The notes: generated by a model from the letters alone, not told the origin. Positions 3,222 through 42,956 are shown, counted from the first letter of the stretch. The stretch is 64,000 bases of DNA from a virus (IMGVR_UViG_3300027708_000060:7938-71937); one strand, 5' to 3'. Numbers and translations are program-made.

Positions 3222-3262
3222 CAAAAAGCCCCTCGGCCATTATGGTCGGGGGGCTTAATGTT
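3222..3262. terminator. intrinsic terminator between convergent blocks, possibly bidirectional
   Basis: AAGCCCCTCGGCCA-tta-TGGTCGGGGGGCTT stem with an A-run on the left and T-rich sequence on the right. Confidence 0.8.
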
Positions 3263-3445: not shown

Positions 3446-5479
3446 TTAGTTAGTTTTGATGTCTTCTGGATTTACATCTTTGATCATTTTTACTTCACAT
3501 GCGTCTGTTGTACAGTAAGCCTCACCAACAGCATCAAATGCCATTCCAGCATAGACACCGCTTAGATCGATTGGGAATAGGGTCATGCGACCTTCTTCGT
3601 ACTCTTCAGGATTACTGCGAGTATATGGCATCTGGGGGTATGCCCCGTCATCCATTGCTAAGAATGAAACAGTTTTAAGTTGTCCATCATACATGTGCAG
3701 AGCTGTACCAATTGCTTCTGCTTCAGTCTTAGGGTCAAATGATACGGTGACAGATACAGAGTTGTCAGACCAATATCGTTGTGCAGTTGCGGCTAGTGCC
3801 ATTTTTTCATAGATAGATACTTCCTTTTCAGAGCGTACTGCTTGTGCTTCGATTGGGAAGTACACAACTGATGTTGTATCTGGGGAATGTACCTCAGGTT
3901 CAACACGGTAATTAGCCATCTTAAACAGTGGCAGCATAGGATCATTGTTAGCAAAACGAATGGTACGAAGGAAGTACTTTCCACCCGGTGTCCAGTGAAC
4001 TCCAGGAGACTCGCCAGCTAAAATAGAGACTGTTCCTGATGGCTTGATGGTTGTGGTCTTAATAGACTCACGGATACCTAACCACTCTGAGTAACTCTTA
4101 TCATAGCCTTGAACTGTTGCATAGCCCTCATCCATCCACTTACGTAGGACAGGGAGGCCTTTAGTGTCAGCAAAATTAGCCACGCCTGAAATAGAGGTTC
4201 CAATGCGACGGTTGCGTTGCATGATTGCATTGGTTTCTTCCCAGTGAGTTGGAAGAAGAGTTACAGTCTTAGCATAGAGATAAGCGAACTTAAGAGTGCG
4301 CTTGAAATCCTCAAGAGTCTCGTGGCGACCAATATAGGTCTCAACAAGAGTACAGCACTCCATAGATTCTAGAGATTGCTCAGCACATGGGTTATAGCCG
4401 GCAGCTCTCCAGTCTTTATTATTAATTGGGTCTGATAGACGACCGTATTGACGGGTAACATCCATCCAGATTACGCCAGGTTCACCGTTACGAGCAATAC
4501 CATCAATGATGGGAGATAGATCTTGTCCTACAGATACCTCAACAGAGTTGTTAGACATCCAGCCGTGGCCTATACGTTCTGGGTACTTATCGTAGTTCTT
4601 AAGATTAAGAAATACTTCATCATCAATCTTACCCATAAGTAGCTCAGCTGATCGGCGTACGTTTCCAGATACTACGCATACTCCAATTAAGTTTCCAAGA
4701 TCTGCGATATCACGAACGGTTAGCTTTTCTCCAGCACGGCCTGAGAAGATACTGTCAATGTGCTTATGAAGTTTGATTAGTGGTTCTGCTCCGGCTGCTG
4801 TGCCCCCAAAGGTTTTAATCTGAGTTCCTGCAGGCCTGATTTGGCTGTAGTCGAATACAGGCTTCTTCTTATCTGATGTAAGGTAGCTATTGATGACGGT
4901 AGTGGTGCTTTCAACCCAGCCCTCACGGGTGTCTGGGATGATGATTGGATCGGAATCTGGTTGTGGGTCATAGATCGTAAAGTCCTTGTCTGCACCCTTG
5001 GTATCAAAGCCTACGCCGACTCCCAGCATAGATGCTTCCATTAAGAATGCGAATGGTTTGGCAGGGTTAATCTTGGTCATCGCATCTGTGGATACAAAGG
5101 AACAGTTCTGCAACGCTGCAGAATTCTTTTGAACATTGACGAGGGGAGTTCCCATCATCCATAGACCACGACCAGGTGGAGTCCATTTGAATTCGAACAT
5201 ACGGTCGAATGCTTCTTTAGCCGAGGCTTGAGCCTTAGCATCTGACCATGGGAGACGTTGGCTCTTAGCATGGTCTTTTTGGATTGAGTACATGCCATTA
5301 ATAACACGCTCACAAGTATCTGCCCAAGTCTCCTTGGTTCCATCCTCTTTAAGACGAGAATAAGTTCTGATAAAAGTAATTTCCCCGACAGAGTTTCCCG
5401 CAGCATCACGGTACCCCCAGTTAACCTTCTTGGAACGGTAGGTATTTACAAACTCTTCAGCAAGATTAAACGAAAACAA
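3446..5479 (-). CDS. nrdJ: class II (adenosylcobalamin-dependent) ribonucleotide reductase, monomeric RTPR type
   Basis: PPGRGLW, ALQNC, VVSGNVRRSA, NPCAEQSL, TTIKPSGTVS and C-terminal CTTDAC motifs; TTG start. Confidence 0.93.
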   Translation of the reverse strand: MFSFNLAEEFVNTYRSKKVNWGYRDAAGNSVGEITFIRTYSRLKEDGTKETWADTCERVINGMYSIQKDHAKSQRLPWSDAKAQASAKEAFDRMFEFKWTPPGRGLWMMGTPLVNVQKNSAALQNCSFVSTDAMTKINPAKPFAFLMEASMLGVGVGFDTKGADKDFTIYDPQPDSDPIIIPDTREGWVESTTTVINSYLTSDKKKPVFDYSQIRPAGTQIKTFGGTAAGAEPLIKLHKHIDSIFSGRAGEKLTVRDIADLGNLIGVCVVSGNVRRSAELLMGKIDDEVFLNLKNYDKYPERIGHGWMSNNSVEVSVGQDLSPIIDGIARNGEPGVIWMDVTRQYGRLSDPINNKDWRAAGYNPCAEQSLESMECCTLVETYIGRHETLEDFKRTLKFAYLYAKTVTLLPTHWEETNAIMQRNRRIGTSISGVANFADTKGLPVLRKWMDEGYATVQGYDKSYSEWLGIRESIKTTTIKPSGTVSILAGESPGVHWTPGGKYFLRTIRFANNDPMLPLFKMANYRVEPEVHSPDTTSVVYFPIEAQAVRSEKEVSIYEKMALAATAQRYWSDNSVSVTVSFDPKTEAEAIGTALHMYDGQLKTVSFLAMDDGAYPQMPYTRSNPEEYEEGRMTLFPIDLSGVYAGMAFDAVGEAYCTTDACEVKMIKDVNPEDIKTN

Positions 5480-5520: not shown

Positions 5521-6999
5521 TTAAAGTTTAAAGCCCTCATCTAATATTCTACTCGATTGGGCCTCACTTAGTCCACCGTTAGGGAGCTCACGGAGAGTGT
5601 TAGCTTTGTCACCAAATAGGGCTGACAATACACCGCCAGAAGTTTGGCGCTCTGCTGTGATACGGATGAACTCTTTATTCTCTTCCAGTTCTTTCATTTG
5701 ACCAACCAATTTAAAGAGTCGATCAATCTCTTGTCCAGTGTTAGGATCCGGGTATCCGCCGTTCAATTCCTCTGCATATCGTGCAAAAGCGACTCTAGCG
5801 CCCTGCATTTCGATAACTGTGTTGAGTAAACCCTTAAGTTGCTCTTTAGTCTTAATCTCTACAGGTAGATTGAAAGCACAACTATTAGCAGGTTTAAAAG
5901 CAGGACAATTTGCCGCTACAAAGCAAGTATCGCATTGACGAAGTGATGCAGAGGTGCTAGAAAGGATAGGTACATCTTTAAGAACATCTTTTCCATCCTC
6001 ATCTTTTTCAACAACCGTCTTAACTTTTACACCAAAAACAGGCAGAATCTGACGGTCATTTACGTCTCTTTCTGCCAAAACTTTCCTACCTTCTGAAGGT
6101 CTCTTATCAGGAAGCGCACCACCTGTTTCCGCACTTCCTGGGTCATCTATAAACTCACTGTTATCAGATAGCTTCTTACCGGATCTTTTATCCAAGGCGT
6201 TCTCCAGTTGCATGTAGGACCATATAGCGAGGCGGGTTACCTCATTACTATCGTCATTAATAATCTTGTCGTAGTCTAAACCAGCTCTCTCAATGATCGC
6301 TTTATAGCGAGGACGAGCTTGATCTTTTTGCTTCTTCTGGTAACGAACCAAACGGGTTCCATCCCAGACAATTGTTTCTCCACGCATCATTGGACTTAAC
6401 CAAGAAAGACTGCTTGCTGTGGTCAATGCCACCTGGCGTAGGTTATCAGGTTTGGCACATGCCACACCGTGAAATTGTAGATCAGGGAACTCATTTAGAA
6501 GGGCTCTAGAACGGGCTGCAAGGCTTGTATCGTCCTCTAAAGTCTCTCCTAGTAGGGCAATGTTCATGTATCGCTCTGCAAGGCCGTAGAGGGCCGTATG
6601 GCCTAATTCTGGGTGCCACACTACCCAAAGCTTATCTTCCCCAAGATTCTCAATCATAGTGGTGCGATGGTAGTTAGTCCATGAAGGCCCAAGTACTTTA
6701 GCGTCTAGCTCAGTAGCTCCAGAGATTCTTTCGGCATTGATGCCGACCCATTCCTGGTAGTTCTCCGCATACTCTTGAATCTCACGCTCAGTCATGTTAA
6801 GGTCATTGATCTGGTGCCCGCCACCATCTACGTAGACTTTAACATCATCCGGAAATCTTCCCTGGATCAAGTAATCTTTGGTCTTAGGCAAGCCACGCTT
6901 GACTAAACGATAATAGTTGACGCTAACATGCTTAACTCCCATGTTAGTAAGTAATATGCGATGGGACGGTACTTCAGCCCCCATGAATACCAGGTTCAT
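5521..6999 (-). CDS. divergent TGT/DpdA-like TIM-barrel protein with C-terminal Cys cluster
   Basis: Motif order VYVDGGGHQ, ELD, VVWH, IALLG, FHGVA, ASSLSW parallels DSGxF, LD, PVxH, IALGG, IHxFG, SxDSxSW; then CDTC-x5-C-x8-C. Confidence 0.55.
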   Translation of the reverse strand: MNLVFMGAEVPSHRILLTNMGVKHVSVNYYRLVKRGLPKTKDYLIQGRFPDDVKVYVDGGGHQINDLNMTEREIQEYAENYQEWVGINAERISGATELDAKVLGPSWTNYHRTTMIENLGEDKLWVVWHPELGHTALYGLAERYMNIALLGETLEDDTSLAARSRALLNEFPDLQFHGVACAKPDNLRQVALTTASSLSWLSPMMRGETIVWDGTRLVRYQKKQKDQARPRYKAIIERAGLDYDKIINDDSNEVTRLAIWSYMQLENALDKRSGKKLSDNSEFIDDPGSAETGGALPDKRPSEGRKVLAERDVNDRQILPVFGVKVKTVVEKDEDGKDVLKDVPILSSTSASLRQCDTCFVAANCPAFKPANSCAFNLPVEIKTKEQLKGLLNTVIEMQGARVAFARYAEELNGGYPDPNTGQEIDRLFKLVGQMKELEENKEFIRITAERQTSGGVLSALFGDKANTLRELPNGGLSEAQSSRILDEGFKL

Positions 7000-7457
7000 T
7001 CGAACCGGTTGATTCTACTACCTAGGTGAGCTTCCAAAAGAGCTTCACGCTGCAGATCTACTTCTTTCTGCAGATCTTCCCACGGTTTAACACTGCGGTT
7101 AGTTCTAACAAAACGAGGAGAAGCAAACATAATAGTTGGGATGTTCATAGATAGGGCAGCAGCGCAAAAATCTGCGTCTGAGTCAATAAATAGCTCAACC
7201 TTGCCTTGCGACTTAGCTATATCCAGGTGGCGTAGGCGTAGCTCTTGTCCTACAAAAAACTTTGAATTATCATAGATATCGCCGTACCCAAAGATTAAAT
7301 GGCTACGAAGCCAATGCTCAGTTTTATCTGGATCCATATCGGAGCTTAAAACAACACGATAAACTTCAGAAAGAATTCGGAACAGCTTAATGCCTTCCGG
7401 GATTGGATCTCCAACCTCGGTCATTAAAACACCCTCTATTGCAATAATTGCTGACAT
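6996..7457 (-). CDS. HAD-fold-like protein with degenerate motif I
   Basis: IIAIEGVL (cf. DxDGVL), P.PEG..L, VVLSS, T..WL and LFIDSD resemble PNKP-type HAD phosphatases. Confidence 0.5.
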   Translation of the reverse strand: MSAIIAIEGVLMTEVGDPIPEGIKLFRILSEVYRVVLSSDMDPDKTEHWLRSHLIFGYGDIYDNSKFFVGQELRLRHLDIAKSQGKVELFIDSDADFCAAALSMNIPTIMFASPRFVRTNRSVKPWEDLQKEVDLQREALLEAHLGSRINRFE

Positions 7458-7555
7458 CATTCCTCATCTTTGTCCAAATGTTTCTGCTCACAATATCTTG
7501 CGAGAGAAGTTACCACGTACATCTTGTTGCAGATCTGGCATTGGTACCTGTCCAT
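7457..7555 (-). CDS. 32-aa zinc-finger microprotein (not in the ORF track)
   Basis: MDRYQCQICNKMYVVTSLARYCEQKHLDKDEE; CxxC...CxxxH; TAGAAT 6 nt upstream of ATG; TGATG overlap with the next gene. Confidence 0.65.
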   Translation of the reverse strand: MDRYQCQICNKMYVVTSLARYCEQKHLDKDEE

Positions 7556-7573
7556 GCCCTTATTCTACAGCAT

Positions 7574-8488
7574 CTAACCTCGGAGTGTTCTCCGTATAAG
7601 CGTAGCTGTAGTTGGAAGCTCTATACCATAGAGCTCTTTTTGACTCTTTTTTTCTAACGAATCTCTTTGATCTTTGATAGTTCTTAAAGCTTGTATAGCT
7701 CCAGATTTCTTACCGGCTTGCCAGCGATAGTTGTGGAAGTCTGCGTACCCGGTACCCGTCTGACTGAATGCAATATTGCGACCATGATGAACATCATCAT
7801 AGAATGCGACAGCTTGATCTTGAGCAAGTCTCAGCTTTCTCTCAGCATTAATTCGATAAGCATCATTTGGTGCTCCTCTAAGATCATTGATAGCGCTGTT
7901 ATACCTATCTAAGATCTCCGCCGCCATGTCATGATCACGCTGTGCTTTTTGTTCCCAATCACGACTGAATGGTGGTTGAGGATTGTGCTCAGGTTTTACA
8001 GTCCAAGCATCCGCAATAAGATCATAGGCTGCATACGGGTTAATCTCCCGAATATCAGTTGCAGGGTTTACATAAAATGTAAGCTCGTAGCCTTCCCAGT
8101 TACGGGTATTAGGCATAATCTCAGCATTAAAGCTTTCATTGAACATAGAAGCTATCTCTTGATTAGAGAAGCCTATATATTCTGGGTTTGATTGACGAAA
8201 CTTTACATACTCAATACCAACAAGACAATCCAGATCGCCAGGTTGACGAGCTGCTTGCCATTGATAAGAGACACCAGAACCAGCTAACCAAGCTCTAGTC
8301 CAATTATATGGATCAGAGAAATTGCGGCCTAAGAAATCAAAAAGAATCTCTAAGATTCCATCACGCATAGTTATGCGTAATGATTCACCTTGGAATAAAC
8401 GAGGATCTAGTTCAGCTGCAGGTGCGCTGAAATAAGAAGTAGCCCCGGGTGCAATACCCGGAGCCTTCTGATAATCATAAATTCCCAT
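7574..8488 (-). CDS. Pol-beta superfamily nucleotidyltransferase
   Basis: WLAGSGVSYQW...GDLDCLV (hGS...DxD) and downstream ELTFYV strand; helical C-terminal domain. Confidence 0.75.
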   Translation of the reverse strand: MGIYDYQKAPGIAPGATSYFSAPAAELDPRLFQGESLRITMRDGILEILFDFLGRNFSDPYNWTRAWLAGSGVSYQWQAARQPGDLDCLVGIEYVKFRQSNPEYIGFSNQEIASMFNESFNAEIMPNTRNWEGYELTFYVNPATDIREINPYAAYDLIADAWTVKPEHNPQPPFSRDWEQKAQRDHDMAAEILDRYNSAINDLRGAPNDAYRINAERKLRLAQDQAVAFYDDVHHGRNIAFSQTGTGYADFHNYRWQAGKKSGAIQALRTIKDQRDSLEKKSQKELYGIELPTTATLIRRTLRG

Positions 8489-8542: not shown

Positions 8543-8824
8543 TTAGGAGTTTTTAGCTGCCTTAGCTTCTTCTGCAATAGCTGCAATTCGAAGCGCTGAG
8601 TATTCAGCTGCTGCCTGTGCCTGAAGATCCATAAGAATTTCAGAGGTGTAGCGGCGAACTTCGATAAGAGTTGCTTCACGCTCTACTGGCAAAGAAAATA
8701 CCGATGGGCTCTTTTCAATGAATACGTTTCCGCCATCATCAATAAGAACAGCAAAACCAAACTTAATTGCTGGATGAGCTGGAGCTTCGGCTGTCGCATC
8801 TGAGGTTGTTGTTTCGTCTGTCAT
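8543..8824 (-). CDS. hypothetical protein
   Basis: intact ORF with AGGA RBS. Confidence 0.65.
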   Translation of the reverse strand: MTDETTTSDATAEAPAHPAIKFGFAVLIDDGGNVFIEKSPSVFSLPVEREATLIEVRRYTSEILMDLQAQAAAEYSALRIAAIAEEAKAAKNS

Positions 8825-8832
8825 TTTATATC

Positions 8833-9411
8833 CTATTCGTATAGTCCGAGTTTTTTACGGTTTTGTTCTACTACAAAAGTCTTAGCTGGGCAAAAGTCGC
8901 ACAAGTATACCTTTGTGCCACCAGATTTTGCTGCAGTTTCAAGACCGAGTTCTTTTCTAGCTTCTGCTGTGCTTTTTGGTACCAAGCGCTTGCTTTCAAC
9001 TTTCCAATCATAACATCCCTCTACAGGACGTAAGTGTAGATTAAAGCACTTCATAGCATCATCAAAGAATGTTGCCTTGGTCGTATAGTAATCAGGATCT
9101 ATATCAGCTAAGCCGCCACCGACCTTGTTACGAAGGTTTTCAATAATCTGCTTACGTACCTCAGGACGAGAGTACAGCTTAACTCCCACTTTAGATAAAA
9201 ATCCGCTATGTGGAATTCCTGCAGATTCATGACGATCAATCAAAACCTGAAGAGTTACGTCGTCATCTGGATGACCTTCAAAGTCTGGAAGCTCTTCAAT
9301 TGATTTGCAGTTATAGCAGTAGAGCAGACGAATCTTAGGACCGTCGTCCTTGATCTCTGTGTATGTTCCTTCATCGGCGTTGCCGCCTTGACCCAAAATT
9401 GGAATGGTCAT
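8833..9411 (-). CDS. hypothetical Cys/His-rich, probably zinc-binding, protein
   Basis: CYNC, H..H, C...H....C and CDFCP motifs. Confidence 0.65.
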   Translation of the reverse strand: MTIPILGQGGNADEGTYTEIKDDGPKIRLLYCYNCKSIEELPDFEGHPDDDVTLQVLIDRHESAGIPHSGFLSKVGVKLYSRPEVRKQIIENLRNKVGGGLADIDPDYYTTKATFFDDAMKCFNLHLRPVEGCYDWKVESKRLVPKSTAEARKELGLETAAKSGGTKVYLCDFCPAKTFVVEQNRKKLGLYE

Positions 9412-15781: not shown

Positions 15782-16936
15782 TTATAGTGGGTTACCCGTT
15801 ACATCCACGGTAGAATGAATTTCTTGCCCACGATACATGGTTTTACCCTTATGAATATGTACTTGATCAAAGTGGAAGCTATCATCATCTCCATCTTTAA
15901 AGAAGATAACGCTTACTCCTTGTTGCCAGTTTTCAAAGTACTGTAAAGCTTGGCCCTTACCATCCACGCCACCTTTTACAGATGGGACCGCACCATCAAC
16001 CCGGCATAGGCATCCTGGGCTAAAAGATACACTCTTAATTGCCTGGTCACGATCAAATACCGTCTTGCTTTGCTGTTCCATACGATGCGTATGACCAAAT
16101 AAGGTTGAGATGTTAGGATTCGAGTTGGCATATTGCGCCGCAGTAGAACCACTAGAGTTAGCACGGTCACCGTGCATAGCACGCAAACGCTTATTAATCC
16201 AATGAGCTGCAGCAGGGTATCCATCGATAAATTCCACTCCTAGTTCTTCACAACGTAATAGATTTTGTAGGCTTAGCACTGGCCAAGACTCAGGCATGTT
16301 AGCTACCTTAATTCCGTATGCTGATGCGGCATTGTTATTGATAAACATGCTGAGTCGCTTATCATGATTACCTTCAAGCAGAATGATGCGGGCATATGCT
16401 CCTGCTTCAGCACGTTGCTGAGCAAGGAAGAGGTGACCACGATCAATAGCAAGCTGGGCAGTATGGGCAAAGTTAGGCTCTTGGTCATACTTACCATACA
16501 TAGGTAGATCTAAGAAATCCCCAAGGTTAATTACCTGGGCTAGTGGGTGACCGTGGTCTAACCCTACAACTTGTAACGCCACATCCATAGCAGATTCATC
16601 ATGGAATGGGTCTAAGGTACCATCTTCATATTTGCGATAACCGATCTGTGGATCTGGTAAAGCTACAGCAACTTTCCAGTCACTGCTTATCAAAGCAGGA
16701 GTGCGAACCTTTGGTTGCACCACTGTTGGGGCTGCCTGTTGTACTGGCTGCCACTCTGGTCCCTCGCTCCATTTGGGAGAAAGAATAATTTTTGTATCAT
16801 CTGGATTAGTAGAAAGGCTAACCTTACTAATCTTACCTACATCATCAGGTGTAAGACCGTTGGCCTTAAGTAGTTTATCTATAGAGCTTAGAGCTCCATC
16901 TGCTTTAGCGGTATTGTATGAGTCTTCTAGTGACAT
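15782..16936 (-). CDS. calcineurin-like metallophosphoesterase
   Basis: LPDPQ, NLGDFLD, EGNHD, HGD and GHTH motifs. Confidence 0.85.
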   Translation of the reverse strand: MSLEDSYNTAKADGALSSIDKLLKANGLTPDDVGKISKVSLSTNPDDTKIILSPKWSEGPEWQPVQQAAPTVVQPKVRTPALISSDWKVAVALPDPQIGYRKYEDGTLDPFHDESAMDVALQVVGLDHGHPLAQVINLGDFLDLPMYGKYDQEPNFAHTAQLAIDRGHLFLAQQRAEAGAYARIILLEGNHDKRLSMFINNNAASAYGIKVANMPESWPVLSLQNLLRCEELGVEFIDGYPAAAHWINKRLRAMHGDRANSSGSTAAQYANSNPNISTLFGHTHRMEQQSKTVFDRDQAIKSVSFSPGCLCRVDGAVPSVKGGVDGKGQALQYFENWQQGVSVIFFKDGDDDSFHFDQVHIHKGKTMYRGQEIHSTVDVTGNPL

Positions 16937-33740: not shown

Positions 33741-34007
33741 CTACCGAGGTGGGATACGTTTTGGCAAATCGCCTTTTGGAAGTCCGGTAAAGATCTGTTC
33801 CACAAGCAGTGACAGTGTAAGCCCAATGAATGTGGATGCTAGAATGTAAGGAAATAGAAAGCGCAACCTTACTGTCAAGATTAGACAAAAGATTAAACTT
33901 AGTACAAGACCTAACAAGCTACGCCACTTACCAAGCTTGAGTAAGAATGCTTCTACTGCAGCCAAAATACACGCTGTTGCTAACGCTGAAACTATTAATG
34001 TGCCCAT
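33741..34007 (-). CDS. small membrane protein, about 3 TM
   Basis: very hydrophobic 88-aa ORF; TAGACT 7 nt before ATG. Confidence 0.65.
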   Translation of the reverse strand: MGTLIVSALATACILAAVEAFLLKLGKWRSLLGLVLSLIFCLILTVRLRFLFPYILASTFIGLTLSLLVEQIFTGLPKGDLPKRIPPR

Positions 34008-34017
34008 ATAAAACAGT

Positions 34018-35982
34018 CTACTCTCTAAAGACAACTCTGTCAATATCGAAGCCTTGACCTGAGACATATGTGGTTGGGCCACAAGATATGGTAACAATTG
34101 CGTATGCGGATCCAGTAATAGAGCTAACCGGAAATGAGTTTCCAATATAAGCCCAACGATTAGTGTGAGTTATTGAAACAACTTTAGACCTAGCAGTTGA
34201 AGTAATTTCTGAGTTAGAAGCCCCTGTAGAGTCTTTAGAGTTAGTAGTTTTAGCGCCGGTAATATTATCTTGATATACAACTATAACGTTATCATTAATG
34301 TCGTAGTAATCTACTCTTAGGCTATAGATGCCTAAAGAGTCTGAGTTAATTGGACGTATAGCTACAGAAGAATAATAACCGGCATCAGCAACAATATAAA
34401 TTTTTCCAGTTTGAATACCAAAATATGGGCTGAAACTAGAGCCTGCCGTAGTAACTCGGCAATATCCTTGGCCATGAGTGACACTATCACCTAATAAAGT
34501 TCCACTAGCAATTTTTCTAGTTAATGTAGAGTTAACTGCAGCCCAACCATTTAAATCATTTTCAAAAGAAGAAGAGGAAATTTTAGCGTTAGGTAGGTCT
34601 GCGTAAACATCAGATGATCGGCCTGTAGCAATTCCCCAGTTCCCCCCTACGGGCATATAGTTTCCTAAAGTTGCATTTAATCTATTAATTTTAGTTCCAT
34701 AGTTAGAAAAATAACTGCTCTTTCCTCCACCAACACTTTGAACTTTAGCTGCCCAAATAGTTTTACCAGAAGTTAAAGGGTTATTAATAATAAAAGTACT
34801 TCCAGAAGTTATATCTAAATATTGATTTACTATTCGACCATACTCGCCATGAACTCCATCAATATGAAAGTATGTTGAGGTAGAGCCTGTAGTATTAGAT
34901 ATAGAAATAGTAAAAGGAACAGTAGTGGCACCAGCAGCTAACTGAACTACGGTGTGAATTCTTTTCCAATCCCCCTTTTCAGCTGAAGAAATTGTAAATG
35001 TATTTGTACCTAATGTATATGTTGCTTGAGCTCCACGAACATAGGCAGAAATGATAAAGTCTTCTCCACCGACTGCTGCTGAAGAAAGATAAGCAGTTCC
35101 GCTTAAAGATCCGGTAGAAGAATAAGTTAACTTTCCAAAATAATTGCCATACTTAGGTAACAAACCCGCATCTGAAGCAATACGGGTAAGAGTACCGCTA
35201 CCTGCTGTCCAGTCTGTAGTATTTGTTTCAAATCCCGAGTTACTTACATAGTTATATACTTCTTTAAATTCCCATTTACAATCTGCGGGGGCGTAATATT
35301 GTTGAGTCAATGGATTAGTGATAGCTATTCCACCATCGCCAGAAAAAAATGGATCAATTGCAGAAGACTTTTCAAGGAGTCCTCCATCTAACCAGTAACT
35401 ATCTCCAGCCACATTGTCTGTAAAATAAAAACTTACTTTAACTAAAGGATTGCCAGCATCTTGAGAAAATGGTGGGGTAATACCTGTACCATAAACTTGA
35501 ATAGGTGCAGTAGTAGAAAGAGTAAAAGGATTGCTATCTACAAAATATTGAGTAGTTGGGTAATATTGTCCATCAGCATCTGAAAGAATTGATGACTGCA
35601 GTTGTGTAGAGGATTGATTAGAAAATTCAATTCTTACTTTTACTGTCCTAGCCGCAGACCCCAGTATATAAGCACTGGCAACAATTTGTTGTCCTGGCTC
35701 TATAGCAACCCAATCAGAGATATAAGCAGCGGTACCGGTAGCAATAGAAGTTAACTTGCCTACTTTAGTTCCGTGAACAATTGCCGCAGTAGTTACACTG
35801 TCTTGACTAAGGTTTCCATTTAAAGGAGTCCAAGAAGATAAACCGTATTCCATTTCTGGATTGTAAAAGTAGTTTTCTTTTTCACCAGCAACATTAATGT
35901 AGATCTTACGGGCGTCTTCATACATAAGACTATGAGATGCTTCAGCAAATTGAAGCATGTCAAAGTAAACATTGTCAGCCAT
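34018..35982 (-). CDS. baseplate/tail protein with tandem carbohydrate-binding-like (CBM4/9-type) domains
   Basis: repeated N..NxxFE...W and Y.SAY...W.R...(F/W).D modules; AAGGAG RBS. Confidence 0.7.
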   Translation of the reverse strand: MADNVYFDMLQFAEASHSLMYEDARKIYINVAGEKENYFYNPEMEYGLSSWTPLNGNLSQDSVTTAAIVHGTKVGKLTSIATGTAAYISDWVAIEPGQQIVASAYILGSAARTVKVRIEFSNQSSTQLQSSILSDADGQYYPTTQYFVDSNPFTLSTTAPIQVYGTGITPPFSQDAGNPLVKVSFYFTDNVAGDSYWLDGGLLEKSSAIDPFFSGDGGIAITNPLTQQYYAPADCKWEFKEVYNYVSNSGFETNTTDWTAGSGTLTRIASDAGLLPKYGNYFGKLTYSSTGSLSGTAYLSSAAVGGEDFIISAYVRGAQATYTLGTNTFTISSAEKGDWKRIHTVVQLAAGATTVPFTISISNTTGSTSTYFHIDGVHGEYGRIVNQYLDITSGSTFIINNPLTSGKTIWAAKVQSVGGGKSSYFSNYGTKINRLNATLGNYMPVGGNWGIATGRSSDVYADLPNAKISSSSFENDLNGWAAVNSTLTRKIASGTLLGDSVTHGQGYCRVTTAGSSFSPYFGIQTGKIYIVADAGYYSSVAIRPINSDSLGIYSLRVDYYDINDNVIVVYQDNITGAKTTNSKDSTGASNSEITSTARSKVVSITHTNRWAYIGNSFPVSSITGSAYAIVTISCGPTTYVSGQGFDIDRVVFRE

Positions 35983-36006
35983 CAGATCTCCTTAAAGAGT
36001 AAATAA

Positions 36007-36228
36007 TTATTCTGTTGGGGTTTCTATAACTGGTGGATTTGATAATTCAGCAATAACATTTTTAGCCCATTCAGTTGCTTCCTCTTTAGAAGCCCAAGGT
36101 TGATTGCTATTGTTAGGATTAAAAGGTTGAAGAATATCAGGTGCGCCTGCCTCATTAGGTGTATTGGCGTTCCAAATACGAACGGTGTTTTCGTCATCTA
36201 CTTCATAGCGAAATGGATTTTTTGCCAT
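36007..36228 (-). CDS. hypothetical protein, possibly a fibre accessory
   Basis: TAATG coupling; QP..P....PW...EA..WA pattern. Confidence 0.6.
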   Translation of the reverse strand: MAKNPFRYEVDDENTVRIWNANTPNEAGAPDILQPFNPNNSNQPWASKEEATEWAKNVIAELSNPPVIETPTE

Positions 36229-36902
36229 TATGGTCTTATTCCTTCCCAAGTAAGTTTTACAGTTTTGTGGTGTGTTACACGAACGCTAGGGTCAAACCAG
36301 ATTTCAAAACCAGCTTGACTTGCACTTTCGCAAAACGATAGGTCTTCTCCCATCATATTAAAATTATACCCTTTTCCGTCTACTTGTGCAGTAACTTGTA
36401 CAGATTGAAACCACGGGCGAGGAATACTTTCAAATACGCCCTGTTTAATACATATAAATCCAAAGCCTGCCCCAGCAATTTTAACAGGTTCTTTCATCTC
36501 TAATACTTCTTCGTAAGTAATTGGTGAAGCTAATGTTTCTTTATGAATTGGAACAGTACCGTTAGCCATTAAATATCCGCCTGAAATAATATCTTTATCG
36601 CTTCTGTAAAGCTTTACTACGTCTTCAGGTTCAAAAGCAATATCAGAATCTATCCACATTAACTTGTCGTAAGTAAGACCACCTTCTAATGGTCGTTGTT
36701 CTGTAAAAGAATTTTCTCTAGTTCCGCTTAATGTTACTTCTCGAGCATCCCCAACATGAGATGAAACCCCGTTAGCAAACGCAAAAGTAATTTTTTCTTG
36801 CGCTAAATAAGCAACTAATCTTAATAATGATTGAACATAAGAACCTAACATAGATGAACCTGGAGTACAGATTACTATATTTGCGTGTGGTTTGCCTTCC
36901 AT
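36228..36902 (-). CDS. GT-A fold (GT2-like) glycosyltransferase
   Basis: ICTP, WIDSDI (DxD), GFGF..IK..VFE, GEDLSFC, H.K motifs. Confidence 0.75.
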   Translation of the reverse strand: MEGKPHANIVICTPGSSMLGSYVQSLLRLVAYLAQEKITFAFANGVSSHVGDAREVTLSGTRENSFTEQRPLEGGLTYDKLMWIDSDIAFEPEDVVKLYRSDKDIISGGYLMANGTVPIHKETLASPITYEEVLEMKEPVKIAGAGFGFICIKQGVFESIPRPWFQSVQVTAQVDGKGYNFNMMGEDLSFCESASQAGFEIWFDPSVRVTHHKTVKLTWEGIRP

Positions 36903-36915
36903 TTTTTACCTTTCG

Positions 36916-38274
36916 TTATGAAGCAGAATAAATTGAAACAGTAAACGGAATTAATGGCTGTAAATTTGCGAAATTATTGCCACCACTACTCGTACTCCAA
37001 TAAATTTGATTATTATAGATTAAAGGATAGGTGCTAGTATTTTGAGCAGCCCAAGAGCTAGTAGCATTTTGAATATTACTAAACAAAGTATTTTCTCCCG
37101 TAACTGTTCTCCAAGTAATTGCATCTGTAGAAAAATGCAAAATATATCTACTTTTACGAGGAGCTGTTTCTGGAATGTTACCTGTATCCATATACCAATA
37201 ATATCCATTAGCAAAAAATAAGTTATTAGTTGATATAGTTGGATTTGATTGGTTACCTCTTCCGTTAATAGAGGTAATTGTCCAAGTAGTTCCATCAGTA
37301 GAATATGCACCGTTTGCTGCACTTCCATAAGTAAGGTTATTTACTGAGCCACCCACTAAAAATTTACCATTTCCAAAAGTTGCAGAGTTAAAAGTATTTG
37401 TATATGCAACAGTACGGGCTGCCCAAGTAATTCCGTCAGTAGATGAAATAATTGTTCCAGAAGCGCCAGCAGCTACAAACGCGTTGTTTCCATATACCCC
37501 ACAGTACATGGCCGCACCACTTGTAGGAACGGTTCTAGCTGTCCAAGTAGCTGCATCTGTAGATGAATAAATAGAGGAGGTGGAGTTTCCAGAATTAGCT
37601 ACAGTAATAAAAGTATTAGTATTAGATCCAAAAAATATTTGTGTTGTTGCTGTAGTTGCCCCGCCAACGCGAGACCAGCTAACACCAGCATCTGTAGTTC
37701 TAAAATAATAGTTAGTAAGAATATCTGTGGCAGGCAATAAACCGATAGAATTACCGTAAGCCGAAACTCCAGCAATATTTGGGCTACCTGTAGTCGTATA
37801 TGTAGCAAGAGCTGAAGATACAGTTTGAGCCGTAGTTCCTACTATTTTATTTACAAAAGTCTGGGCACCAGTCCAAGAAGTAAAAAATATGGATGTTCCA
37901 ATTATTACAGTACTTTGAAAAGCGGGGGTTCCATAGGAGGCTCCGCCAGCCGTATTAAGATTTATTCGATTTTCTTTTCCAGTTCCTAATCCAGCTCCTA
38001 CTGTAAAGTTTGATTCGGTAGTTGTTAAAGATATATATTGATTTTGAAAAGAAGCTAATTCATCTGAGTAATACGCGTTAACAGGTGAGTTAGCAGATAT
38101 ATAGGCTAAACCTTCTGCAGGAGCTACGTTAATAATATAGTTTCCAGCATTAAGTGAAGTTGTATAAAATCCTATGCCTTTACCAACGTTTCCAGAATAA
38201 ACTAAAGAAGTTGCACCAGCAGGTAAAGAAGATGATGAAGAACTTGCGGCTACAGGAAATGTACTAATACCCAT
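36916..38274 (-). CDS. tail fibre / receptor-binding protein with BNR (Asp-box) repeats
   Basis: repeated STDGxTW motifs. Confidence 0.7.
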   Translation of the reverse strand: MGISTFPVAASSSSSSLPAGATSLVYSGNVGKGIGFYTTSLNAGNYIINVAPAEGLAYISANSPVNAYYSDELASFQNQYISLTTTESNFTVGAGLGTGKENRINLNTAGGASYGTPAFQSTVIIGTSIFFTSWTGAQTFVNKIVGTTAQTVSSALATYTTTGSPNIAGVSAYGNSIGLLPATDILTNYYFRTTDAGVSWSRVGGATTATTQIFFGSNTNTFITVANSGNSTSSIYSSTDAATWTARTVPTSGAAMYCGVYGNNAFVAAGASGTIISSTDGITWAARTVAYTNTFNSATFGNGKFLVGGSVNNLTYGSAANGAYSTDGTTWTITSINGRGNQSNPTISTNNLFFANGYYWYMDTGNIPETAPRKSRYILHFSTDAITWRTVTGENTLFSNIQNATSSWAAQNTSTYPLIYNNQIYWSTSSGGNNFANLQPLIPFTVSIYSAS

Positions 38275-38275
38275 T

Positions 38276-38593
38276 TTAGACTATCTCCACTCCGCTTATG
38301 TGAAAGTTAATAGTAGTTGCTGAAGCGCCACCCCTTATAATTTTAGGAGTTGCGTTAGCAGGTATTACTTGCTTGCAATCAATGTAGACAGTTGTACTTG
38401 CGGCAATTGTTGTTGCCGTATGTAAATCAACTCCGTCTATTGTAAGAGTAAAGGTACCAGCAGATGCTGCTGTATTGGTAACGGCAATGTTAGTTACTAC
38501 TGTCGTGGTTGAGGTAGTAGGCACTGTATACAACGTAGTTGTTGTAGTGGTTGTGGCTGCTCCTCTAAAGAGGGTTTTTGCTGATACGGCCAT
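38276..38593 (-). CDS. small tail-associated structural protein
   Basis: LFRGAA...TLYTVP...FHISGVEI pattern. Confidence 0.6.
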   Translation of the reverse strand: MAVSAKTLFRGAATTTTTTTLYTVPTTSTTTVVTNIAVTNTAASAGTFTLTIDGVDLHTATTIAASTTVYIDCKQVIPANATPKIIRGGASATTINFHISGVEIV

Positions 38594-38868
38594 TATAGAT
38601 ACGCTCCCATAGTAGTAAGGATTATGTTGTCATCTGCCCCAGAAGTTGTTGTAAGTGAAGGAATTATAGAGGTCCAAGTAGTTCCATTATAGTACTCTAG
38701 TATGTGGCTGTCTGTACGATAAGATACCATACCTTCAGCTAGCACGCTAGTAAGGGCGGTTGTACGTGCAGAGGCAGAGGCAAAAACCATTGTACTTTGA
38801 TTCATTAGATAGCTATTAACATTTGCAGCAGTGAGAATATCGCCACTGTTAAATAGTTTATATGTCAT
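38593..38868 (-). CDS. tail fibre N-terminal anchor-type protein
   Basis: YK.F..GD.LTAA.VN.YLM.Q...F.SA.AR....EGM..Y..D....YYNG..W. Confidence 0.6.
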   Translation of the reverse strand: MTYKLFNSGDILTAANVNSYLMNQSTMVFASASARTTALTSVLAEGMVSYRTDSHILEYYNGTTWTSIIPSLTTTSGADDNIILTTMGAYL

Positions 38869-38878
38869 TTTTTCCTTA

Positions 38879-40201
38879 CTATCCTAGCACTGAGGTGTCG
38901 AGTATACCATTGACAGAGCTGTCTAGGGTGAATGTATTAGTAGAAATACTAGTGGAAATAGTAATAGTAATCTGGGCAAAAACAGAATTTAAAGGAGAAA
39001 GTTTACCGTTTCTACCTGAATCAGAGGCGGTAGTAAACTCAGAAAAAGTAGTAGATGTGGTTAGGCTGGTACCGGCTGCGGTTGTTCCCAAAGACTTACC
39101 AAACTGGTCATACCAAGTAATGGTAGCAGAAATTGTTTTAGCACTGCCCGCATCATGACGTACCCAACCACTAAATAGATAGCGGGTATTGGCGCTAATC
39201 GGTATGCCGTTAGTTTTTATATCAAGGCCTGAAGCCGGTAATGACATAGTTACTGAGCTTAATCCAGCAGTGTTTAATTTACCTACGCCTGTATTTTTTG
39301 CAGGGTATGCTGAATCAATAAATGGGGTAGGGGCAATTATACTTTCAATAGTGTAAGTTGATTTAATAAGAGTACCCGCAGAAACGCCCCACCGTCCTAT
39401 AGATTCTTCAAAAGAAGAGTCGTTATAGTCAAGCATTAAATTATGACCTAAAGAATAGCTGGCGCCCCAGTGAGTCAAAGCTGTGGTGTAGGTTGTTAAA
39501 CCAAGCGAAGTTCCTTTATAAGAGTTTATGATATTTCCGGTTGAGGAAATAGAACGATTGTAAATATCTCCTAATGCAGCTTCGTAAGTAAACCCTAAAC
39601 TTGTAGATTTATTTTGCAACAAAGCACTTGGAGTATAAATTGGATTTAAAGAATTTCCTAGTACATTTCCCTCTACCCGCATATAATCGTACATAAAAGC
39701 AAATACGCCAAGGATAGTTACAAAGCTATTATCTCCATAGTAGGATAAACCTTCTCCAATATTACTACTTTGATTAAGCCATGCTTTAGGCAACCAATTA
39801 CTTATTTTAACTAAAGAGTTTTTGTCAGAAACAAGAAACGTATAGGTAGAGCCACAAAATTTCCAGCTAGATCCGTTAAATAACCAAATAGAATATGATA
39901 TTTCTAAGTCTTGATAATCTGCAATAACATCTGTATAGGAAATACCAATTGAGTTATAGGCACCTCCGATAAGGATTGTACCTTTATTTGGATCATCTAA
40001 TGTACCGGTGTAGCTTTTTACTAACGCCCAGTGAGTAGGTGTAGGATCAGAAGGATCGGGAATTATCGGGCTCCAAGAAAGCTTAATAGTTTGGTAATCA
40101 CTTGAAAGTGCAACAATATTAGACTGGTAGTAAACACCTACTACAGAGGTAACTCCATAGCGTACTCCAGACCCATATAGTTTAGTACCATACTTTGCCA
40201 T
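38879..40201 (-). CDS. baseplate wedge / tail protein I-like, with an incomplete C-terminal CBM-like domain
   Basis: YG...YG..YG N-terminus, LP..W and YKGT..GL motifs; follows baseplate J. Confidence 0.65.
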   Translation of the reverse strand: MAKYGTKLYGSGVRYGVTSVVGVYYQSNIVALSSDYQTIKLSWSPIIPDPSDPTPTHWALVKSYTGTLDDPNKGTILIGGAYNSIGISYTDVIADYQDLEISYSIWLFNGSSWKFCGSTYTFLVSDKNSLVKISNWLPKAWLNQSSNIGEGLSYYGDNSFVTILGVFAFMYDYMRVEGNVLGNSLNPIYTPSALLQNKSTSLGFTYEAALGDIYNRSISSTGNIINSYKGTSLGLTTYTTALTHWGASYSLGHNLMLDYNDSSFEESIGRWGVSAGTLIKSTYTIESIIAPTPFIDSAYPAKNTGVGKLNTAGLSSVTMSLPASGLDIKTNGIPISANTRYLFSGWVRHDAGSAKTISATITWYDQFGKSLGTTAAGTSLTTSTTFSEFTTASDSGRNGKLSPLNSVFAQITITISTSISTNTFTLDSSVNGILDTSVLG

Positions 40202-40204
40202 TTA

Positions 40205-41956
40205 TTAAATACCACCAGTAACTGTAGTTGTTAAGGCAGAAGCAAGAAGATATGGAATTTCATTTGCAGCAAGAGTTAAAGAGTTATTTACGGTAGCTGA
40301 TGCGTCTCTAGAAAACTGAGTTACAGTTGCAGAAATAACACCTGGTACAGATTGAATAGCTGTAGTTATTTGAGATAAGTTAATTACATCACCAAATACG
40401 TTATTGTCATAGTAAAATATTCCGCCTTGTCCAAGAAAAGCTTGATAAATTGCTAGTTTAATATCTGAATTTTTGTATGCTGAATTTGCAACTACAGTAG
40501 AAGATAAGTAAATAGGGACATATGTTGGAGGTAGAATTGTTAAGGAAGTTCCTGTTAAAATTTTATCTGACATATAAGTTTGAACTGCTGTTGAAAGATT
40601 AGTCCAAGCAGAAGTTGGGGTTAATGAAATAGCTAGTCCATTGCCAATATATGTTGCTGTTGGAGTACCGGCTACAGTAAAAGAAGAAGATGTTGGGATA
40701 GCAGTAATAACTGCTCCCTGTAAATTATATACACTTGGATTTACACCAGATATATTAACAGTATTTCCAATAGCAAAGCCATGATCTACATCTGTAGCAA
40801 ACGTAACCGCAGAACCGGTTGTAGAAGTACCAACAATATTAACTTGAGGGTATCCGGTAGCTGCTTGTCCATCATTCATAGGTTGAATATAAAGGTTAAT
40901 ATTTGTGTATACACTTGATGCAGCATTGGCTTTGCCAACACCTTCTGTTAGATTTGCTAAATAAGCATAATCTGATAGAGTTACTGCTCTACGACGAGTA
41001 AGTACTGCAGCTTTAATTTTATTTTTAATATCAACTGTAGAGTCTGCGTCAGCACCCCCAGTAGCTGGAGTACTATTAGATACTGTAAAGTAAGTTGTTA
41101 CTTGTGGATCTAAATTTCCAGGAAAAAAAGTAAGTTCTGTAATTGCTAAAGATTTAATATTTCCCGCAGAACCAACACTAACTTTATATGATGCACTAAT
41201 TAATTGCCCACTAGGAGGAATAGCGCCGTTCACATTGTCTCCAAAAACAATGTTAATTGTTCCATCTTCATTAGGAGATGTAGTAAATACCCTATCTCCA
41301 GGACCAGCTTCAAATAGGTTATCTTTATAGGTCCAGATACCAAAAGCAACACCTTGACCTACATATACTGTAATAGAGTTATTTACTACGCCTGTTTCAG
41401 GAATATAAAATGTTTGATTAGCAGAACCATCTGAAGAACCTAAGTTAGCTGGAAGAGATATGTTATAGGTACTATCAATTAAGTCTGGTTTATCTGTATT
41501 TACTGTCTTTCCTTCTTGACAAGGTAAAGTAATAGATGCCCCAGGAACTATAGCAGTCGCTGCAGTTGTTGTTTCAAAATACACTTCTGCATAAGCACCA
41601 AAAGATAGCGGCGCCATAACTTGTGTACCAATAGGTATATCAATAGTATTAGAACTTACATTAGTAAAAGTTACATTTACAGTTGCTGGGGTAGGACCTG
41701 AAATAACATAGTCATATAGTTTTGCAAAAGAAAGCAAAGTCTTACGCTGGATAGCGGTATCTATAGTTGTCTCATTAGCAATTCTATCTAAGTAATGTGA
41801 CATAATGTCTCCCATATAAGCAAACGTTTCTACAAGAACATTGCCCAAATCTGAATAGTCAGTAGGGTTCCAATTAGTACCGGTACGCTCCCTAATAAGT
41901 GCAATTAAATCCGCTTTTAATGCGGCAAAGTCTCTGGATGTATAGTCGATTTGCAT
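40205..41956 (-). CDS. baseplate J / gp6-like wedge protein
   Basis: IDYTSRDF, W...SD.G..L.E.FAY.GD, FGD...G.IP, GGAD, RAVT..DY. Confidence 0.88.
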   Translation of the reverse strand: MQIDYTSRDFAALKADLIALIRERTGTNWNPTDYSDLGNVLVETFAYMGDIMSHYLDRIANETTIDTAIQRKTLLSFAKLYDYVISGPTPATVNVTFTNVSSNTIDIPIGTQVMAPLSFGAYAEVYFETTTAATAIVPGASITLPCQEGKTVNTDKPDLIDSTYNISLPANLGSSDGSANQTFYIPETGVVNNSITVYVGQGVAFGIWTYKDNLFEAGPGDRVFTTSPNEDGTINIVFGDNVNGAIPPSGQLISASYKVSVGSAGNIKSLAITELTFFPGNLDPQVTTYFTVSNSTPATGGADADSTVDIKNKIKAAVLTRRRAVTLSDYAYLANLTEGVGKANAASSVYTNINLYIQPMNDGQAATGYPQVNIVGTSTTGSAVTFATDVDHGFAIGNTVNISGVNPSVYNLQGAVITAIPTSSSFTVAGTPTATYIGNGLAISLTPTSAWTNLSTAVQTYMSDKILTGTSLTILPPTYVPIYLSSTVVANSAYKNSDIKLAIYQAFLGQGGIFYYDNNVFGDVINLSQITTAIQSVPGVISATVTQFSRDASATVNNSLTLAANEIPYLLASALTTTVTGGI

Positions 41957-41958
41957 AA

Positions 41959-42351
41959 TTACCCCGCAATAATTCCGCTGTAGCTAATGGTGCCTGTATT
42001 AATTGTTAAAGAAGTAAGTGTATCATCCGGCAGCTTTAAAGACACAATTACATTTTCTGTACCGTCAAAATTATTTCCAGCAAAATCTACTGAGGTCACA
42101 GAAACTTCTGGAATCCATTTTGAAATAGCTTCTGAAATTGCCAAAGGAATAGCAATTTGAGCATCACTATCGTTTTCAAATAAAGACTTACTCCAGTCAA
42201 CTCCATAAGTAGGAAGCATAGGGCGTTGCCCTACGTAATAAGATAGCAAAGTCAAAACTTTATCGACATAAATTTTAGCAGCTGACTCAGTATATTGAAC
42301 TACCCCTGAATCAGGACCAATTGTATACGGATAACTTAAGGCTTTACTCAT
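41959..42351 (-). CDS. baseplate wedge gp25/gpW-like protein
   Basis: G.R.M.P.YG, LFE, I..AI..W.P motifs. Confidence 0.8.
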   Translation of the reverse strand: MSKALSYPYTIGPDSGVVQYTESAAKIYVDKVLTLLSYYVGQRPMLPTYGVDWSKSLFENDSDAQIAIPLAISEAISKWIPEVSVTSVDFAGNNFDGTENVIVSLKLPDDTLTSLTINTGTISYSGIIAG

Positions 42352-42956
42352 GACTGTACTCCTATCCATACTGGGTAATCAGGATCCCCAGCAATAAACA
42401 TTACCCAAACTAGTTGGTTTACCGCAGGAATAGTTCTGTGAAATGTATGCTCTGGGGTTTTAAGACTAGTAGATGAACTAGTAATTCCAGGAGCACTGAG
42501 ACCACTAGCAGTAGTATAGGCGCTAGTTTCCTGTATGTCTGTTGTAGATGTAGGTGCAGTTACGGCAACATTTTTTGTAATCATAGTTTTAGTTGGTGTG
42601 TGGGCATGATTAAGTTGTTTAGTTGCATCTTTAGCAACTACAGTAAGTGCTGGGATACTAATGGTTACTGTTCCTCCTTGAGGATCTGAACCTGATGCAC
42701 TTGTTGTAGAGGTTGTAAGAAGGGCAGCAACTTGTGTTGCTGTATGTGGTAGATGATCTGGATGATAAGAGGAGTCTGTAATGGGTAAACAAGCTGAAGC
42801 CCAATTATGAGATTCAACACCAGTAGGTCCATGAACTAAAACTTGAATTCTATTTTTATTTAAAGGATCTTTTACGTTAGTTACTTGTCCAGAGTAAATA
42901 CCATAAAAACGAGGACGACCCTGAGGATCCATCATATATTCAGTGCTGTGATTCAT
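42348..42956 (-). CDS. baseplate spike gp5/gpV OB-fold protein with an internal insertion
   Basis: FYGIY.G.V....DP....RI.V.V....WA and P.V...VWVMF.AGDP.YPVW.G. Confidence 0.75.
   Translation of the reverse strand: MNHSTEYMMDPQGRPRFYGIYSGQVTNVKDPLNKNRIQVLVHGPTGVESHNWASACLPITDSSYHPDHLPHTATQVAALLTTSTTSASGSDPQGGTVTISIPALTVVAKDATKQLNHAHTPTKTMITKNVAVTAPTSTTDIQETSAYTTASGLSAPGITSSSTSLKTPEHTFHRTIPAVNQLVWVMFIAGDPDYPVWIGVQS

Follow-up and report, generated by a model that had tools for sequence, protein, structure and literature searches.

A stretch of viral DNA of 64,000 nucleotides (IMGVR_UViG_3300027708_000060:7938-71937, called here the window) was analysed, and a conserved gene module was found in it whose last member encodes a 492-aa relative of DpdA, a DNA-modification enzyme that exchanges guanine in phage DNA for modified guanines and shares the barrel of the tRNA-guanine transglycosylases (TGT). 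The module has five genes, for a 192-aa protein (up192), a 93-aa protein (up93), a nucleotidyltransferase-like protein (NTase), a HAD-like protein and the DpdA-like protein. At the alignment column that holds the nucleophilic Asp of the known enzymes the DpdA-like protein has Ser196. Because of this replacement, and given the published mechanism, the protein is predicted to be unable to run the known double-displacement guanine exchange, and it is very probably not a working 7-deazaguanine or queuine transglycosylase. The five-gene block probably does a different job from base exchange. We tentatively read the DpdA-like protein as one that binds DNA or guanine but exchanges no bases, a reading whose likelihood falls somewhat short of even.

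The kinship of the protein with DpdA was established by sequence profiles and by structure prediction. The AlphaFold2 model, built on an alignment of 107 diverse homologues, has a mean per-residue confidence (pLDDT) of about 97 for residues 1-272 and moderate confidence for the C-terminal domain. It presents a TGT-fold barrel (1-272), a disordered linker (about 273-320) and then a beta-hairpin, four-Cys and helical domain. The top 50 Foldseek matches of the model in the PDB are all TGT (best E 4.8e-6), and structural alignment with VIA against archaeal and bacterial TGT gave Z 17.6 with a root-mean-square deviation of 3.7-4.0 over 262-274 residues at 11-16% identity. In sequence, PHROG family phrog_887 ('queuine tRNA-ribosyltransferase') matches residues 1-470 of the 492 at E 1.9e-52, and the C-terminal part alone at 1.3e-31. 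The family profile aligned in hhalign with DpdA of phage 9g (Prob 97%, E 9e-11), with gp021 of Bacillus phage BCD7 (Prob 99.9%, E 6e-32, 258 columns) and with the barrel protein of Bacteroides phage BS162P1 (gene 00087; Prob 98.4%). The Streptomyces phages BRock and GiJojo have homologues with 33-35% identity, the one in BRock being gp36. Several searches returned nothing for the protein: there were zero matches in Pfam, NCBIfam and PADLOC, none among PDB chains with the single sequence, and only ribosomal protein S6 (E 0.7) with a profile, while hhalign against E. coli Tgt was insignificant apart from the DSG motif. The Pfam TGT family has no match, even at E <= 1, anywhere in the source record, a 71.9-kb IMG/VR viral record, estimated to be about 73% complete, of which the window is a part. 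Taken together, the comparisons identify the protein as a true DpdA relative and a member of a long-form DpdA lineage of the BCD7 gp021 type.

The original prediction, made from the sequence of the window, had described a TIM barrel resembling TGT with an added four-Cys domain. The barrel is borne out by the structural matches, and the domain turns out to be older than supposed. Its cysteines C356, C359, C365 and C374 are invariant in 107/107 sequences, and together with the helical part it aligns with residues 603-733 of BCD7 gp021 (25% identity, E 5e-12). The same two-domain plan in BCD7 gp021 indicates that the four-Cys domain is ancestral to the lineage and not an addition. A tblastn search with the C-terminal domain in 50,697 phage records found only DpdA-like proteins and the split form of BS162P1. 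One match in a Streptomyces genome (L186, 7001-7615) is limited to the C-terminal part of the DpdA-like protein (query residues 303-502) and could represent either a truncated gene or a four-Cys domain that stands alone.

The mechanism of guanine exchange has been described for DpdA of S. Montevideo, and in that article (PMC10164549) Asp95 is given as the general acid/base, Asp130 and His181 as base recognition residues and Asp256 as the nucleophile. The legend of its Figure 6B gives Asp95Ala and Asp256Ala as the mutants assayed, and either substitution by Ala abolished guanine exchange (the running text once prints 'Asp265' for the mutated residue, where the legend says Asp256); the article also states that all three active-site Asp residues are invariant across TGT and DpdA. 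In the window protein, D58 in the motif YVDGGG aligns with the Asp of LDSGAF in 9g, IDSGAY in BCD7 and TDSGGF in E. coli, which is the acid/base column, while the 'LD' Asp and the 'HG' His of 9g and BCD7 correspond to D99 and H177. The nucleophile column holds Asp in 9g (CDSSSW), BCD7 (GDSTTW) and BS162P1 (VDSVTW), whereas the window protein reads ASSLSW. Across the clade this column is occupied by Ser, Ala, Thr or Gly; Asp is present in 1/107 representatives, in none of the 161 viral loci collected and in none of the 18 full-length copies from actinobacterial genomes. D99 is kept in 91/107 representatives and 151/161 loci and H177 in 92/107 representatives. The D58 column has Asp in 74/107 and 113/161, so that 33/107 are non-Asp, and in 20/161 loci it holds neither Asp nor Glu. 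The recognition residues are thus conserved better than the catalytic acid/base. A nucleophile that had migrated to position 193, where part of the family reads 'WDS', was considered and rejected; this column is highly variable (Thr, Ala, Asp, Ser, Glu, Tyr, Val, His and others) and holds Thr here. The single representative with Asp at the nucleophile column, P0362 ('TADSGSW'), shares 42% identity with the window protein as well as D58, D99 and H177, and may be an active member or a revertant within the nucleophile-less clade.

The genes for the precursor of 7-deazaguanine, preQ0, were sought as well. QueC was not found in the source record, and QueC, QueD (PTPS) and FolE were not found in any of three complete relatives with terminal repeats, namely the 112.5-kb BRock record and two genomes of 102.3 kb and 100.2 kb, the latter encoding a DpdA-like protein with 91% identity; these searches extended neither to QueE nor to supply by the host. 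The controls BCD7 and 9g were strongly positive in the same searches for QueC, QueD and FolE. By the searches for these three genes, the phage lineage is without a 7-deazaguanine precursor pathway. The expectation that the locus does not fit a standard dpd pathway therefore holds, with the nucleophile missing and the precursor genes not found.

These results bear directly on the view that the protein is an ordinary DpdA or queuine tRNA-ribosyltransferase which inserts host-made 7-deazaguanine into DNA or tRNA. The homology to DpdA is genuine, and the database names point the same way: PHROG 887 and RefSeq use 'queuine tRNA-ribosyltransferase' and the GiJojo copy is annotated 'dpdA-like tRNA-guanine transglycosylase'. 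The view is nevertheless very improbable, as the nucleophile Asp is gone here and in nearly the whole clade, and Ala substitutions abolish exchange according to PMC10164549. Moreover, Pfam TGT fails to match at E <= 1, the preQ0 genes were not found and the window has no tRNA genes. Mycobacterium phage Orion offers a parallel; it has DpdA only and grows in a host without the preQ0 pathway, and in PMC6884629 its DNA is reported to be free of 7-deazaguanine.

The distribution of the module was followed in 161 viral loci, made up of 159 IMG/VR loci from two scans together with BRock and GiJojo; the set contains a few contigs in duplicate, and BRock stands in it as both L001 and L110. Partner genes were counted by profile in the 144 DpdA-like loci that have at least 4.5 kb upstream. 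The HAD-like gene was present in 143 of the 144, up93 and up192 in 142 each and the NTase gene in 128. All five genes were present in 126 loci, and order and strand were kept in 125 of these. The module, which runs up192, up93, NTase, (micro-ORF), HAD-like, DpdA-like, where the micro-ORF is a very short open reading frame (ORF), is widespread in phages of actinobacteria. BRock and GiJojo have homologues of NTase, HAD-like, DpdA-like and up192 in the same order. The co-occurrence in related genomes on which the original prediction depended holds across very distant relatives. Several distant loci without the NTase have a further ORF in the interval from up192 to the HAD-like gene (L112 5457-5921, L116 5031-5504, L119 4602-5105); its Cys/His-rich N-terminal pattern may be of the HNH homing endonuclease type.

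The DpdA-like family comprises 848 clusters at 50% identity (E <= 0.001) and occurs in at least 569-578 IMG/VR contigs. Nineteen matches came from bacterial genomes, 17 of them in Actinomycetota and some within Mb-sized contigs, and the HAD-like gene accompanies 18/18 of the full-length copies. Prophage-like copies were found in Streptomyces, Nonomuraea, Kitasatospora and other actinobacteria; the bacterial copies (L168-L186) include, for example, one on a 7.6-Mb Streptomyces contig and one on a 1.1-Mb Terracoccus scaffold. The copies on large contigs suggest integrated or carried prophages, though BRock has been described as virulent. One copy lies on a 115-kb contig binned as Candidatus Saccharibacteria, which is possibly a mis-binned phage.

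The ratio of non-synonymous to synonymous substitution (dN/dS) was estimated pairwise against close relatives; dS was often saturated, so the ratios are rough. The values were 0.065-0.13 for the DpdA-like gene, 0.03-0.20 for HAD-like, 0.07-0.13 for the NTase, 0.10-0.21 for the micro-ORF and 0.03-0.07 for up192, with 0.03-0.055 for the neighbouring ribonucleotide reductase (RNR) gene. The members of the module are under purifying selection. Since they recur in over 140 loci and their dN/dS is 0.03-0.2, the genes are not chance ORFs.

The HAD-like protein is the closest partner of the DpdA-like gene, and it too lacks a nucleophile. Its motif I is A-I-E-G-V-L, in agreement with the observation in the original prediction that the DxD reads AIE, and in 29 diverse homologues the nucleophile position is never Asp (Ala, Ser, Val, Thr, Gly and similar); only G10 and W127 are invariant among them. 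The proposal that both enzyme folds have lost their catalytic aspartates agrees with the nucleophile positions of the HAD-like and the TGT-like protein, and is too broad in that only one of the three TGT/DpdA aspartates is lost, D58 and D99 being kept. Indications of a HAD fold come from protein-language-model neighbours in the Atlas (NIF/HAD clusters at 0.92, 172 shared features), from the label 'hydrolase' given by the GiJojo annotators to the homologue and from a profile match to the HAD protein 3u26 over the motif II region, which is insignificant (E 0.24). None of the 29 homologues matched any HAD family in Pfam; PF03031, PF06941 and PF13419 were not found in the source record at E <= 10; NCBIfam and PADLOC gave no match, hhalign against E. 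coli GmhB nothing and a first profile search of PDB chains none. PdxJ, the top match of a second profile search of the PDB (E 0.0028), was taken as spurious. The homologue in BRock is gp38 (25% identity, E 2e-12). A modelled complex of DpdA-like residues 1-275 with the HAD-like protein scored 0.00, which gives no verdict and counts neither way.

The NTase is the only component of the module with an intact-looking catalytic motif. The GS...DLD described in the original prediction lies in a WLAGSG...GDLD motif, of which G70, S71, D85, L86 and D87 are invariant in 41/41 aligned homologues with identity down to 33%. E135, in 'YE(V/L)TFYVN', is conserved in at least 90% of the 41 sequences and would be the third carboxylate of the Pol-beta motif. 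The AlphaFold2 model (pLDDT 89.9) shows a small alpha/beta domain with a helical bundle C-terminal to it. For the N-terminal domain VIA gave weak matches to 1ylq (Z 6.7, 89 of 93 residues), 1no5 (Z 6.2) and PAPD1 (Z 5.5), the rows ranked above 1ylq being generic helical bundles that match the C-terminal half. The Foldseek matches in the PDB are also weak (best E 0.03) and are mostly ANT(6), AadA, LinB, CD-NTase and CCA-adding enzymes. Among the viral models of BFVD, structural relatives were found in uncultured phage proteins at E 1e-9 to 1e-6 and 13-19% identity, one of which is named as a Pol-beta NTase domain protein (E 1.3e-8). Two of these relatives are long, at 812 aa (named 'Amidoligase enzyme') and 884 aa, and suggest a broader family of phage NTases in which fusion to ligase domains sometimes occurs. 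Pfam, NCBIfam, PHROG and PADLOC had no match to the NTase, and PDB chains none by single sequence or by profile. The BRock homologue is gp39 (35% identity, E 1e-64). On its motif, together with the weak fold matches, the 304-aa protein is accepted here as a probable NTase.

The remaining small genes differ in their standing. In an alignment of 25 up192 sequences C32, H61, D118, C122, C133, C171 and C174 are invariant, with C35 and H126 almost so, and the protein is probably metal-binding; BRock gp42 is its homologue (31% identity; 30-31% for BRock and GiJojo). It matched nothing in Pfam, PHROG, NCBIfam, PADLOC or PDB sequences, nor anything above 0.83 in the Atlas, and up93 matched nothing in Pfam, PHROG, NCBIfam or PADLOC. 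The 32-aa finger-like micro-ORF has the predicted CxxC/CxxxH pattern, with ligands C6-x2-C9...C22-x3-H26 that are all kept in 12 homologous loci while other positions vary, and its Pfam matches are below threshold (PF22995 at E 0.0066, with 16.6 bits against a cut-off of 27; PF05605 at E 0.0097). It is confined to the closest relatives, and 83/139 loci with both NTase and HAD-like leave no room for one. Of the four-gene cluster first proposed, the NTase, HAD-like and DpdA-like genes therefore belong together, the finger does not belong to the wider module, and up93 and up192 are core members besides. In another lineage the slot between NTase and HAD-like holds an apparently unrelated Cys-rich micro-ORF (about 30-36 aa, CxxC...C...CxCxC; L013, L014, L015, L017, L018, L023, L061, L065, L079 and L080). 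The presence of two apparently unrelated types in one slot suggests that it repeatedly hosts tiny Cys-rich proteins.

A binding role without exchange is favoured because the recognition residues are conserved better than the catalytic ones, the partner is also without its nucleophile and purifying selection acts on every member. In such a role, the DpdA-like protein would dock on DNA, probably aided by its C-terminal four-Cys domain, and would keep a guanine, or a base like it, in the pocket that the barrel retains. The translationally coupled HAD-like protein would act as a non-catalytic partner, and up93 and the putatively metal-binding up192 as further subunits or assembly factors. Where it is present, the NTase would probably supply the chemistry, the nucleotidylation of some acceptor. 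A more specific form can be imagined, in which the dead DpdA is a base-flipping DNA-targeting subunit with pseudo-HAD and metal-binding partners, either shielding guanine-containing sites from host restriction or presenting DNA or protein to the NTase for an undescribed nucleotidylation. In this full detail the proposal is quite unlikely. If true, it would represent a new phage system of DNA protection or DNA marking, evolved from a 7-deazaguanine modification enzyme after a move into preQ0-less hosts.

A number of points weigh against a binding role without exchange, beginning with the fact that the role itself is something we infer. The NTase is missing from 16/144 loci and so is not essential to the core function, and its structural matches are weak (Z 6.2-6.7, Foldseek E in the PDB never below 0.03). 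The HAD fold of the partner is only hinted at. The mapping to Asp95, Asp130, His181 and Asp256 was made through the motifs of 9g and BCD7 and not by direct alignment to the solved DpdA; a phmmer search of the PDB with 9g DpdA found no chain. The host may supply 7-deazaguanine. Finally, near-invariant acids are left in the barrel, E9 in 101/107, E97 in 98/107 and E/D208 in 104/107 representatives, which leave room for other chemistry.

This last point leads to the possibility that the barrel is still an enzyme by another route, either a DNA glycosylase that works by hydrolysis or a transferase of bases or sugars, with E208, E9, E97 or water taking the place of the lost Asp and the NTase and HAD-like protein preparing or processing the substrate in a new pathway of DNA or nucleotide modification. 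Besides these acids and D99, the strong purifying selection, the retained residues of the base pocket, the intact NTase motif and the position of the module among nucleotide-metabolism and replication genes in the window are all consistent with it. However, BCD7 gp021 has E9, E97, D99 and E208 too and keeps the nucleophile besides; these acids are therefore features of the lineage and not replacements. The acid/base Asp itself is lost in about 30% of representatives, the HAD-like partner is nucleophile-less and base-precursor genes were not found. On balance we consider a different chemistry possible but somewhat unlikely.

The C-terminal domain has raised another thought, that the protein might resemble a small terminase subunit and recognise DNA during packaging or the handling of genome ends, with the C-terminal domain binding DNA and the dead barrel as scaffold. 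The idea arises from BRock, whose homologue weakly matches phrog_6902 ('terminase small subunit') with its C-terminal domain (E 0.0056), but the same domain of the window protein has no such match at E <= 1, and the tblastn search described above found DpdA-like proteins and the BS162P1 split form only. The position of the gene also argues against it: in the window it ends a replication and nucleotide-metabolism operon, beside the RNR and tens of kb from tail and head genes, and the BRock gene is about 16 kb away from the defined end of its genome. We regard a packaging role as improbable. The pSt2308 record begins just upstream of the DpdA-like gene and has no terminase annotated nearby, which is uninformative.

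The class II RNR gene next to the module has to be considered in its own right. The original prediction placed the cluster beside it, and the adjacency is real here and in 76/82 loci of the first set, yet the RNR type of the window occurs in just 1/5 complete distant module-bearing genomes, there below the family cut-off. The adjacency is lineage-specific and the RNR is not a core member. The adjacency would be explained if the module were a small-molecule pathway serving the neighbouring B12-dependent RNR and mirroring the assembly of the cobamide nucleotide loop, in which CobU, CobC and CobT take part; the analogy of enzyme types would be ours. Such a pathway is highly improbable given the rarity of the RNR in distant carriers. 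In addition, its 'phosphatase' and 'transferase' would both be nucleophile-less, the nearest relatives of the barrel act on DNA and the NTase is dispensable.

The positions of the genes are collected in Table 1. The four minus-strand genes of the original prediction and the RNR beside them were confirmed as ORFs, and the coupling of the last three was seen in two ATGA overlaps, one between the stop of the finger and the start of the HAD-like gene and the other between the stop of the HAD-like gene and the start of the DpdA-like gene; 18 nt separate the NTase stop from the start of the finger.

Table 1. Features of the DpdA-like module and its downstream flank, with positions counted from the first nucleotide of the window.
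Feature	Position	Strand	Description
up192	8833-9411	minus	192 aa, Cys/His-rich, probably metal-binding; core module member
up93	8543-8824	minus	93 aa, without assigned fold; core module member
NTase-like	7574-8488	minus	304 aa; small Pol-beta-type domain and C-terminal helical bundle; frequent, dispensable
C2CH finger-like micro-protein	7457-7555	minus	32 aa; lineage-specific insert
HAD-like	6996-7460	minus	154 aa; without motif-I nucleophile Asp; closest partner of the DpdA-like gene
Long-form DpdA-like	5521-6999	minus	492 aa; TGT-fold barrel, linker, four-Cys/helical domain; Ser196 at nucleophile column
Class II (B12-dependent) RNR	3446-5479	minus	Pfam RNR_Alpha 2.5e-29, RNR-II_ins_dom 4e-16; phrog_367 E 2e-136; downstream neighbour, non-core
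Strong hairpin	3226-3256	unstranded	14 pairs, 9 G-C; from a terminator-like scan, consensus match only

The phage is of a myovirus-like type, with tail sheath, baseplate, DNA polymerase, helicases, primase and recombinase all encoded on the minus strand. The strong hairpin sits between the RNR stop and the last plus-strand ORF, which ends at 3214, where the gene sets converge, and is likely to mark where the minus-strand transcription unit ends. A 384-aa metallo-phosphoesterase is encoded at 15782-16936 (phrog_20266, E 4e-98), amid small unknown genes on the stretch from the replication block to the module. In the baseplate and tail-fibre region (34000-46000) the G+C content is 0.33-0.38, against 0.42-0.47 elsewhere; the large ORFs at 34018-35982, 36916-38274, 38879-40201 and 44704-46470 are without a PHROG match.

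The searchable literature, which did not cover the supplementary tables of DpdA papers, where BRock or BCD7 may be listed, yielded no published account of this clade or its partners, and the BRock genome announcement does not mention the DpdA-like gene. The database names, queuine tRNA-ribosyltransferase and DpdA, are misleading for this clade, because the protein is a true DpdA relative without the exchange nucleophile in a lineage without the precursor pathway. Such a name predicts 7-deazaguanine in DNA, which on the sequence evidence these phages would be unable to make, and surveys that count 'DpdA-encoding phages' would therefore overcount. What has been found instead is a DNA-modification enzyme without its nucleophile which is strongly selected and has a fixed set of partners. 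This combination points to a new function, which may be DNA reading, protection or new chemistry. The carriers BRock and GiJojo are cultivable Streptomyces phages, so the function is directly testable.

In comparison with known systems, the NTase shares G-S...D-x-D and a downstream Glu with the minimal and ANT-type nucleotidyltransferases (MNT/HI0073, ANT(6), AadA, LinB and CD-NTases) as well as a similar small alpha/beta domain with a helical bundle; its PDB matches in this group are weak (Foldseek E at least 0.03), and its clear structural relatives are the uncharacterised phage proteins of BFVD. With respect to the Dpd systems, the module is without adjacent preQ0, Gat-QueC or DpdB genes and leaves the PADLOC models unmatched. 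DpdA1 of phage 9g (gp03) and DpdA of S. Montevideo share with the window protein the TGT barrel and the columns of the 'DSG' Asp, the 'LD' Asp and the 'HG' His, whereas short-form and bacterial DpdA have the nucleophile Asp that is absent here and the window protein has the extra C-terminal four-Cys domain. BCD7 gp021 (757 aa, PHROG 887) shares both the DpdA/TGT barrel and the C-terminal CxxCx5Cx8C/helical domain in one chain; it differs in a linker of about 320 aa against about 50-80 aa in the window family, in keeping its nucleophile Asp where the window protein has Ser196 and in adjoining FolE, QueC, QueE and QueD genes, of which those searched for were not found here. Three of its neighbours were compared, gp015 and gp020 with the NTase profile and gp016 with the HAD-like profile, and no homology was found. 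In BS162P1 the barrel (00087) and the four-Cys domain (00088) are adjacent separate genes, with the four-Cys gene directly downstream, and the barrel keeps its Asp. Among TGT themselves the best structural matches are ArcTGT of P. horikoshii (1iq8) and the Z. mobilis TGT entries, all at Z 17.6 with identity of just 11-16%. Among the eukaryotic members (QTRT1/QTRT2), QTRT2 sets a precedent, being a TGT paralogue without catalytic activity that acts as a partner subunit.

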